Positions 33,363 to 41,394 of a stretch of DNA of 64,000 bases are shown here, one piece after another. The position numbers were made by a program, and so were the translations under genes. The stretch lies in the IMG/VR virus record IMGVR_UViG_3300046170_000289; one strand, written 5' to 3'. Position 1 is the first letter of the stretch, and every line of letters starts with the position of its first letter. The DNA comes from a virus. The notes beneath the pieces are model-generated. The model had not been told where the DNA came from and did not search any database. It was given only the letters and a program-made list of their open reading frames with translations.

Positions 33363-33438
33363 TGAAATTTAGGGTAGGTAAGAGTGCAGGGAAACACTGA
33401 TATGATATTCCTGTGACACCCTCAGTCACAGGTATTAA

Positions 33439-33480
33439 GGACTGTTATTTAATGACGCTGTTTAGTCCTGGTGAGGCGTC
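33439..33480 (-). ncRNA. PhotoRC-II-like structured RNA in psbA leader
   Basis: GACGC/GCGUC stem whose loop GGACU can pair with downstream AGUCC (pseudoknot). Confidence 0.65.
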
Positions 33481-33508
33481 AAGTGTGTCGTTGTGTAACG
33501 ACCGTCCT

Positions 33509-39112: not shown

Positions 39113-39186
39113 CGATCCAGGTTGGATTCGAACCAACGACCGACTGCTTAGAAGGCAGTTGCTCTATTCCACTGAGCTACTGGACC
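39113..39186 (-). tRNA. tRNA-Arg (UCU)
   Basis: Cloverleaf: GGTCCAG acceptor, TAGCTCAGTGGA D arm, ACTGC-CTTCTAA-GCAGT anticodon arm, GTTCGAATC T arm; no encoded CCA. Confidence 0.95.
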
Positions 39187-40884: not shown

Positions 40885-40908
40885 AAAAAAGAGGGGTCAC
40901 CCCCTCTT
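40885..40908 (-). terminator. terminator after DUF4278 gene
   Basis: AAGAGGGG/CCCCTCTT hairpin running into a T tract. Confidence 0.7.
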
Positions 40909-40916
40909 TACTTAGG

Positions 40917-41084
40917 TCACTTGCTGTAGGTCTGCCCACGGTAGCAGAAAGTCCCATGGGACTCAGTGCTTTCCACACAACGTGTGTCATACTTAACACC
41001 ACGGTATGAGGTGTGAGTAATCTGTGCGTCATGCAAGGCAGATGCCTTGTGGATTTGCTTGCGAATGAGGTTAAGTGTGTTCAT
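40917..41084 (-). CDS. DUF4278-like small protein
   Basis: Two YRG motifs (TSYRGVKY, CYRGQTY); GAGGA RBS. Confidence 0.8.
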   Translation of the reverse strand: MNTLNLIRKQIHKASALHDAQITHTSYRGVKYDTRCVESTESHGTFCYRGQTYSK

Positions 41085-41116
41085 GAGTATGTCCTCTGAA
41101 GTTAGGGTTTTTAATC

Positions 41117-41360
41117 CCCGTTCCTTCAGCCGTTTTCGTCCCAATACCACTCACATTCTGGTGCTGATTCCTTTAAGGTATCGACCAACTCGATCTTAAC
41201 TTGATTGCTAAGATTCTGATTGCTCTCAATCTTCAGCATGATAGCGTCAGTCTGAGTGCAGGTGAGTGTTGAATAGAATAATAGTTCTAGCATGGGATGA
41301 ACGCTCCGTTCCGCGACTTACTTGCGTCCAAAAGGATATAGAGTCCCTTGGATGAACGTA
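41117..41360 (-). ncRNA. tandem glutamine-riboswitch-like aptamers
   Basis: Two copies of CGUUCA-UCC..GGA-CG(C/A)A..GGAACGG upstream of a DUF4278 gene. Confidence 0.65.
41126..41293 (-). CDS. 55-aa ORF nested in second aptamer (not in ORF track)
   Basis: Hand translation MLELLFYSTLTCTQTDAIMLKIESNQNLSNQVKIELVDTLKESAPECEWYWDENG. Confidence 0.7.
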   Translation of the reverse strand: MLELLFYSTLTCTQTDAIMLKIESNQNLSNQVKIELVDTLKESAPECEWYWDENG

Positions 41361-41365
41361 TGGTC

Positions 41366-41394
41366 ATGATAACATGACATGACTATTTATGCAA
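41366..41394 (-). promoter_or_regulatory. sigma70-like promoter with overlapping late-like CATAAATA
   Basis: TTGCAT-17nt-TATCAT just upstream of aptamer 1. Confidence 0.6.

Follow-up and report, generated by a model that had tools for sequence, protein, structure and literature searches.

Glutamine riboswitches have been described as compact RNAs of about 60 nt that sometimes occur in tandem, and Ames and Breaker reportedly gave the first description of tandem glnA RNAs in 2011. The glnA RNA family is associated with DUF4278/gifB genes, in front of which glutamine-I and glutamine-II aptamers switch translation ON by disrupting the pairing of an RNA segment with the ribosome-binding site (PMC6212724). 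Both types bind glutamine at the outer P1 end, where the CGC strand and a C:G linchpin pair take part, and glutamine-I has loop E as its hallmark (PMC6698751). Two separate RNAs can come together as a glutamine-II aptamer when glutamine is present (PMC6698751), so that assembly over a long range is plausible. Tandem, and even triple, glnA RNAs are known (PMC2864571, PMC10265488), and a 99-nt glnA match has been found in cyanophage S-CREM1 (PMC9964418); this length fits an ORF-less form of the nested pair described here. Full-text literature searches, whose reach did not extend to the original tandem-glnA description, returned no report of a glutamine riboswitch that is nested, is permuted or contains an ORF.

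We analyzed a viral DNA of 64,000 nt (IMG/VR record IMGVR_UViG_3300046170_000289), referred to as the window, in which a preliminary description had seen two successive glutamine-riboswitch-like aptamers, the second enclosing a 55-codon ORF. Our best explanation, which we hold to be probable when taken as a whole and with its switching mechanism included, is that the region is a single composite glutamine riboswitch with nested cores rather than two successive aptamers, and that its outer core is a canonical type-1 (glnA-type) three-way junction.

The window is T4-like cyanophage DNA. It encodes a PhotoRC-II RNA (33397-33493, minus strand, 48.9 bits) and a tRNA (39113-39186, minus strand, 69.7 bits), both found with Rfam at the gathering threshold, as well as nrdA and nrdB, and the region matches 419 cyanophage records. 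The locus lies downstream of nrdA and nrdB, which are also on the minus strand, and is flanked by nrdB-proximal small genes on one side and by a terminator on the other. It has the form of a mini-operon, in the order promoter-like site, structured RNA, ORF1 (55 aa), ORF2 (55 aa, DUF4278-like) and intrinsic terminator (40885..40909, minus strand). The promoter-like sequence TTGCAT-17 nt-TATCAT (41366..41394, minus strand) is proposed from its position and homology; relatives have TTGACT-17-TATAAT at this site, and a consensus promoter scan of the window gave no match there, the window copy being too weak. A transcript from this site would begin 2-8 nt ahead of the sensor. The -10 box of the operon lies inside an inverted-repeat loop (41363-41378, minus strand), at the same position in L001-L088, and the arms of the repeat covary among phages, being GUCAUG/CAUGAC in the window and GGUCUA/UAGACC, GGUA/UACC or GGAUC/GAUCC in others. 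This repeat resembles the promoter-early stem-loops (PeSL) of T4-type phages. Some relatives have a second, longer DUF4278-like ORF (...KYRGVTYWSCYRIH...) 3′ of ORF2, as in L200:1377-1583.

Two full sets of glutamine-aptamer strands are present on the minus strand between 41358 and 41118. The first comprises CGUUC (41358-41354), a P2 hairpin (41352-41327), CGCAAGUA (41326-41319) and GAACGG (41311-41306). The second opens with CGUUC (41303-41299) and UCCCA (41297-41293), and between its 5′ strands (CGUUCA-UCCC-AUG) and its 3′ strands sits ORF1 (41126..41293, minus strand; 55 codons and UGA; phrog_504 / T4-GC 430). The end of ORF1, W-D-E-N-G-stop, is written as UGGGA (41143-41139), CGAAAA (41138-41133), CGGCU (41132-41128) and GAAG (41127-41124), after which GAACGG (41123-41118) follows. 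When the sequence was re-read, every strand that the preliminary description had listed was found in its place on the minus strand, an arrangement far beyond chance, and the second set does begin directly after the first, although the spacing is 2 nt and not three.

Relatives of ORF1 were collected by a protein-based search in which the RNA motifs were not used, and are encoded in at least 569 IMG/VR stretches. The order of 5′ strand, 3′ set, 5′ strand and 3′ set is kept in 222 of 257 retrieved cyanomyovirus loci, and the whole arrangement in all eight of the eight isolate genomes inspected first, which represent different Kyanoviridae genera. Apparent extra sensor halves near some loci proved to be regex false positives inside speD and other genes. 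A scan of genome contigs for GGAACGG-N(1-6)-CGTTCAYC was unspecific, with at least 120 chance matches in unrelated bacteria, and was uninformative on cyanobacterial hosts.

In the nested fold, outer P1 joins the first CGUUC (41354..41358, minus strand), invariant in the 236 parsed loci, with the last GAACG (41123-41119), which is followed by the linchpin G (strand 41118..41123, minus). This helix is 100% paired in 56 aligned sequences and closes a three-way junction of the glutamine-I kind. Directly after CGUUC-A comes outer P2, a hairpin UCCAAGGGA...UCCUUUUGGA (41327..41352, minus strand) with many stem variants and rich covariation in relatives, three of its four counted pairs being changed on both sides. 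Next is the outer junction strand CGCAAGUA (41319..41326, minus strand), which holds the CGC ligand and linchpin residues and the loop-E strand AGUA; it is invariant in the 236 loci and agrees with the Rfam Glutamine consensus CGGAAGUA. P3, a helix absent from the preliminary description, then pairs AGUCG (41314..41318, minus strand) with CGGCU (41128..41132, minus strand; CGACU in relatives, with a U.G wobble in the window), whose last base opens the UGA of ORF1. Only in the nested fold do CGCAAGUA and GAAG (41124..41127, minus strand; also part of P4, below) flank P3 and thereby form the junction of a glutamine-I aptamer. The same fold alone brings AGUA and GAA together, and by the family consensus AGUA and GAAG would form loop E.

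P3 is common to both cores, and opens into the second. The presence of such a helix is as expected for glutamine-I, while a whole second core as its loop is atypical. Inner P1 is a local hairpin, GAACG-GAG-CGUUC, also present in the plain MFE fold: its 3′ strand, GAACG with the linchpin G (41306..41311, minus strand; the G is kept in 247/247 loci), comes first and pairs through 41311-41307 with the 5′ strand CGUUC (41299..41303, minus strand) across the loop GAG. Inner P2 pairs UCCCA (41293..41297, minus strand), whose final A is the A of the ORF1 start codon, with UGGGA (41139..41143, minus strand), which encodes W-D, and so closes over 145 nt in which the body of ORF1 lies. The AUG and the last codons of ORF1 thus lie in the P2 5′ strand and in the P2 3′ strand plus junction, respectively, as had been proposed. 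Around the inner junction (41133..41138, minus strand), the elements follow one another in the cyclic order of the outer junction, namely P1, A, P2, CGCA.., P3 and a short linker. Since inner P1 is closed by a loop and inner P3 is open, the inner core is circularly permuted and has P3 in common with the outer one.

The preliminary description had instead paired each set side by side, so that aptamer 1 would gate ORF1 and aptamer 2, formed across ORF1, would gate ORF2; in such a model, GAACG-loop-CGUUC would be only an off-state hairpin. Canonical strands, found in 227 of 236 parsed loci, are identical to each other and permit either P1 pairing equally well. Moreover, the first set is made before the second and could adopt a short-lived fold; by itself it is aptamer-like (22-28 bits), and the second set of L096 (phage ACG-2014f, which has the strands without the ORF) scores 32.1 bits alone on Glutamine-II (GA 33). 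The loci with changed strands point to crossed partners. At least 120 IMG/VR contigs, which differ widely in their loops and nested genes, have the double flip of inner P1 to CAACG/CGUUG, and none has either single flip; scans of metagenome contigs for each single flip also gave 0, a result that adds only weakly to that from IMG/VR. Outer CGUUC/GAACG is retained in 94 of 94 complete double-flip loci. Side-by-side pairing would put a C.C or G.G mismatch in both P1 helices of at least 94 such loci, whereas the crossed pairings are perfect. Across the 56 aligned sequences, 99.7% of the nested structure is paired and both partners have changed in six of its pairs, whereas the side-by-side structure has unpaired cells in both P1 helices, in the flipped variants.

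P3 is AGUCG:CGACU in 232 of 236 parsed loci, the others being two G.U variants, the window with its U.G, and L082 with AGACU:AGUCU. The helix is never broken in these 236 loci, and its sole non-wobble variant is doubly compensated. An IMG/VR scan for a changed third P3 base returned 11 matches, of which the 5 genuine ones were all AGACU:AGUCU and 6 were due to chance; that for a changed fourth base returned no contigs. Two double-flip loci carry CGACC and hence a terminal A.C mismatch in P3. The long-range pairs of inner P2 occur as UCCC:GGGA, UCCU:AGGA, CCCC:GGGG and UCUC:GGGA; the first 4 bp are without mismatch in the 236 loci, and one mismatch is seen in 2 of about 100 parsed double-flip loci. 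The UCCCA/UGGGA pairing, whose conservation the preliminary description had named as a check, is conserved in cyanophages, and so is that of CGUUC with GAACG, with its partners exchanged.

The covariation consists of few types of change, one P3 variant lineage and one flipped pair in many backgrounds, because most helix positions are invariant. The ligand-free MFE contains the inner P1 hairpin as well, so that the covariation of this hairpin taken alone would fit a side-by-side arrangement with an off-state hairpin too. P3, loop E and the unchanged outer strands argue against that reading: side-by-side aptamers leave the covarying P3 without a role, place loop-E AGUA and GAA in different aptamers and, by nearest-neighbor energies for L096, are 8.5 kcal/mol less stable (-21.7 versus -30.2 kcal/mol for the nested fold). 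We regard two side-by-side aptamers as improbable, and a separate gate for ORF1 made by aptamer 1 does not fit the nested fold.

The nested fold also bears on how the element scores with Rfam models. At gathering thresholds, there was no Rfam match in the sensor region of the window. At relaxed thresholds, the covariance-model check proposed earlier, with glnA and Downstream-peptide models, did find the first set, with both scores below the gathering thresholds: 22.1 bits on Glutamine (RF01739, GA 35), covering the first strand set only, and 23.2 bits on Glutamine-II (GA 33). The low Glutamine score results from the 168-nt ORF, which splits the model; the split second set cannot be reached by a covariance model of about 55 positions. 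In the ORF-less L096, by contrast, the Glutamine model (GA 35) finds a single aptamer of 41.1 bits bounded by the first CGUUC and the last GAACG, in which AGU...ACU pair as P3 over a distance of 41 nt; extended, this P3 is AGUCG:CGACU. This match and the agreement of the outer core with the RF01739 consensus bear out the earlier assignment of the strands to the glutamine-riboswitch type. A glutamine-II aptamer would be a pseudoknot of at least 33 bits; the window and L096 fall below that value, and the covariation is that of nested helices. A classical Glutamine-II aptamer (47 bits, GA 33) was seen at L092:720-781, before a DUF4278-like gene of S-CRES1, a cyanophage outside the Kyanoviridae. 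Here P1/PK is formed by CGUUG/CAACG, evidence that an ordinary aptamer accommodates the flipped pair.

Both cores of relatives have the glutamine-contacting residues (C1:G, G2:C, the G of CGC and the linchpin C:G), and membership of the family would assign the sensor RNA its ligand, its regulatory sign and its stoichiometry. The inner junction is CGCAAA or CGCACA in 234 of 236 relatives. In the window, it is CGAAAA, a C-to-A change at the linchpin position that occurs in only 2 of 236 loci, so that the C of CGC does not face the G after GAACG. Given the linchpin role of that C (PMC6698751), the inner glutamine site of this particular phage may be weakened. Closure of inner P2 carries the entropic cost of a 145-nt loop, and ribosome traffic on ORF1 could keep the sensor mostly unfolded.

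We then consider the nested reading frame itself. ORF1 is a real coding gene, to judge from its substitutions: among 117 distinct coding sequences, the third codon position is the most variable and the second the least, the length varies between 52 and 56 codons in whole codons, and two Cys residues, 35 residues apart, are invariant. The claim that a complete 55-codon ORF is nested here is thereby upheld. The product is predicted to be a small helical protein, with four short helices in an AlphaFold2 model (pLDDT 81). It matched no Pfam family, and a Foldseek comparison of the model with the PDB gave no match at E<=0.001. Both phrog_504 (ORF1) and phrog_545 (ORF2) are PHROG families of unknown function, and the ORF1 homologs found are from phages or metagenomes only.

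The end of ORF1 behaves differently from its body. Third-position entropy is about 1-1.8 bit in codons 3-53 and 0.00-0.07 bit in the last five (117 distinct sequences). The terminal codons GAC, GCA, xAC and GAC are never replaced by synonyms, whereas the fourth-last codon varies at its first position (N/H). In the eight isolates, ORF1 starts as CGUUCAUC(C/U)C-AUG and ends as UGGGACGCA(A/C)ACGACUGA-AGGAACGG. The frozen wobble positions of the last five codons indicate that an RNA function constrains them, and the same pattern is seen at the gene end of an unrelated nested family. The C-terminal peptide of ORF1 is conserved, and could suggest that the 3′ motif is kept for a peptide ending W-D-A-N-D, or that the split aptamer is a relic broken by insertion. 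Yet the wobble positions are frozen while an amino-acid-changing first position varies, a codon-position pattern that already refutes this reading. Furthermore, the same nucleotides are found without the ORF in L096 and at the ends of unrelated nested genes, and in L082 the peptide end becomes WDAQV, keeping P3 paired. A protein-constrained or decayed motif is thus very hard to maintain, and we give it hardly any weight against a functional, nested sensor.

Other phages have other contents at the same places. In L096, a GAAA loop caps the 5 bp of inner P2. S-RSM4, S-B64 and S-SCSM1 have a different, 64-aa gene at the ORF1 site, still ending D-A-N/H-D-stop, and S-H68 has a third gene there, with a classical signal peptide; in S-H68, the ORF-containing set alone remains before the DUF4278 gene. 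About 85 loci carry an entire 66-aa gene inside outer (first) P2, with its stop codon in the P2 3′ strand, and its stops UGA, UAA and UAG covary with the P2 5′ strand (UCUCAUG:CAUGAGA, UCUUAUG:CAUAAGA and UCUUAUGU:AUAUAGGA). In some phages, the first strand set is separated or replaced (L026, -100..0 relative to ORF1; L093:425-550), either by an 85-nt segment or by a gene ending ...SIRRWKKSL. L053:827-1360 (plus strand) has a third CGUUCAUCCC strand after ORF1 and then an open frame with HNH-like motifs that gave no Pfam match. In L064:157-597 (minus strand), an HNH_3 endonuclease gene of 146 aa (Pfam E=9.7e-11), encoded on the opposite strand, occupies the outer P2 loop. The sensor loops seem to be landing sites for mobile genes.

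This variety raises the question of whether the genes are passengers: the nested double sensor would then be real and control ORF2 only, and small genes would simply fill insertion-tolerant P2 loops, with no effect of glutamine on them. P2 loops do range from 4 to more than 400 nt and hold at least four different inserts, the opposite-strand endonuclease gene included, and an ORF-less version exists. However, every nested family starts exactly at the P2 5′ strand, with its AUG inside the helix, and ends in or just past the 3′ strand. The three main families also align Cys-to-Cys (hhalign P = 1.5e-4 to 4e-3, with the last five residues removed), which suggests that they are diverged paralogs. 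This exact placement in P2 and the Cys residues in register suggest in turn that sensor and nested gene were duplicated as one unit. We therefore consider mere passengers unlikely, if somewhat less so than side-by-side aptamers.

The gene after the sensor is ORF2 (40917..41084, minus strand; 55 aa; phrog_545 / T4-GC 937), a DUF4278/IF17-like protein with two YRG motifs. It matches phrog_545 with E=9e-35 and Pfam DUF4278 with E=3.9e-5 and 24.4 bits, slightly below the cut-off of 25.3, in agreement with the DUF4278-like gene named in the preliminary description. Through ORF2, the RNA is the leader of a DUF4278/gifB-type gene, as expected for glutamine-I. An AGGA-type site precedes ORF2 in 188 of 221 loci; in the window, it is the Shine-Dalgarno-like GAGGA (41092..41096, minus strand), whose first G is the last base of P4. 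The stop codon of ORF1 lies 38-47 nt before the ORF2 start in most loci.

Between the two genes, the expression platform (41096..41129, minus strand) consists of P4 and P5 and is mutually exclusive with P3, loop E and outer P1. P4 pairs CUGAAG (41129-41124) with CUUCAG (41101-41096) and encloses P5, GGGG (41119-41116) with CCCU (41107-41104). CUGAAG is made up of the last two bases of P3 and GAAG, and contains the ORF1 stop; its partner CUUCAG abuts the ORF2 ribosome site. Where the stop is UAA (CUAAAG), the partner is CUUUAG and never has C, in 33 loci with ORF2 downstream. MFE folds contain P4 and P5 together with outer P2 and the inner P1 hairpin and, in the window, the UCCCA:UGGGA long-range pairing as well. 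Constrained folds of the window gave -71.5 kcal/mol for the nested state and -74.0 kcal/mol for the OFF state. Over the constrained folds, the nested state lies within about 2.5-5 kcal/mol of the ligand-free optimum, a plausible gap for ligand-driven switching. A subset of phages (L010, L043, L045, L058, L059, L088, L091 and L095) carries about 35 nt of conserved extra sequence in the platform-helix loop, between GGAACGGG and CUUCAG; it consists of ACGGAUCC, a small covarying hairpin with a GAAA-type loop and then GAGAAGGUU, and may be an extra structured module.

Given this architecture, the nested sensor could work as follows. Without glutamine, CUGAAG would pair with CUUCAG and block the ORF2 ribosome site. 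Glutamine would stabilize outer P1, loop E and P3, so that P4 melts and ORF2 translation is turned ON, in the manner of the Synechocystis gifB leader. Closing the fold would at the same time hide the start codon of ORF1; for that reason ORF1 may be favored at low glutamine, a less certain step. Since the ORF1 stop is so close to the start of ORF2, terminating ribosomes might transiently open P4 and the ORF2 site, and the two sites, which flank one helix, may bind cooperatively. The anatomy alone sets one constraint: an RNA molecule can carry a translating ribosome or the folded sensor but not both at once, because the ORF1 start is in inner P2 and the last five codons and the stop are in sensor strands. 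The preliminary description had suggested a riboswitch-uORF relay, in which ribosome transit would remodel aptamer 2 and so control the DUF4278 gene; one part of such a relay follows from geometry, since a ribosome can reach the end of ORF1 only by opening both cores as well as the helix that covers the ORF2 site. A reciprocal switch is conceivable on these grounds, in which two cooperative sites lock the fold at high glutamine, with the nested gene OFF and the IF17-like gene ON, and ribosomes on the nested gene keep the sensor unfolded at low glutamine, sensor and gene having evolved and been duplicated as a module. We put this forward tentatively, as possible but rather doubtful.

If the reciprocal switch is true, a riboswitch would have its ligand-binding core partly written in codons. 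Even apart from it, a ligand-binding core here tolerates whole protein genes in its stems and appears co-evolved with them, the same nucleotides serving as codons and as aptamer core, and the locus lends itself to the study of how ribosomes and aptamer folding compete in nature. Because covariance-model scans miss such elements, the use of riboswitches by the abundant marine cyanomyoviruses is under-annotated. By analogy, the element would control a homolog of the host glutamine-synthetase inactivating factor, ORF2, and control of an IF17-like gene would bear on how a phage reads or resets host nitrogen status during infection.

Among known systems, the glutamine-I riboswitch (RF01739; the gifB/IF17 leader of Synechocystis PCC 6803, PMC6212724) corresponds to the outer core, with its CGUUC/GAACG P1, A followed by P2, CG(C/G)AAGUA, P3 and GAAG. 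The linchpin G, the DUF4278/IF17-like gene downstream and a 3′ aptamer segment that pairs with the ribosome-site region are also shared. Unlike glutamine-I, P3 leads into a permuted second core where a small hairpin would be, entire genes lie within the P2 arms, some core nucleotides belong to codons, and the window copy is below Rfam thresholds, which its ORF-less relative passes. With glutamine-II (RF01704, marine picocyanobacteria; 6QN3, PMC6698751), the element has in common the pocket nucleotides CGUUC, GAACGG and CGCA and an association with short DUF4278 peptides. Glutamine-II is, however, an H-type pseudoknot with GGAACGG in a hairpin loop, whereas the helices here are all nested, and loop E and P3 are those of type I.

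Like tandem riboswitches, such as the cooperative glycine riboswitch and the tandem or triple glnA RNAs, the element places two cores of the same class in one leader, which may sharpen the response. Here the cores are not consecutive: one permuted core lies inside P3 of the other and the helix is shared. The cyanophage "tandem" form would be an interlocked pair, and offers a structural route to cooperativity unlike that of the glycine riboswitch. Group I introns carry homing-endonuclease ORFs in their peripheral loops and likewise show an RNA fold that tolerates a whole gene in a loop, as does L064 with its HNH endonuclease gene; in contrast to them, the gene here lies in an mRNA leader that senses a ligand and not in a ribozyme, and the start and end of the nested gene lie in the RNA helices and core. 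Finally, the B12 "RpfB switch" of M. tuberculosis reportedly contains a uORF, located in its expression platform, and so combines translation of an upstream reading frame with an RNA switch on one leader, as does the element described here. It differs, as far as it has been described, in that the cyanophage RNA holds a conserved gene for a 50-66-aa protein inside the aptamer itself.
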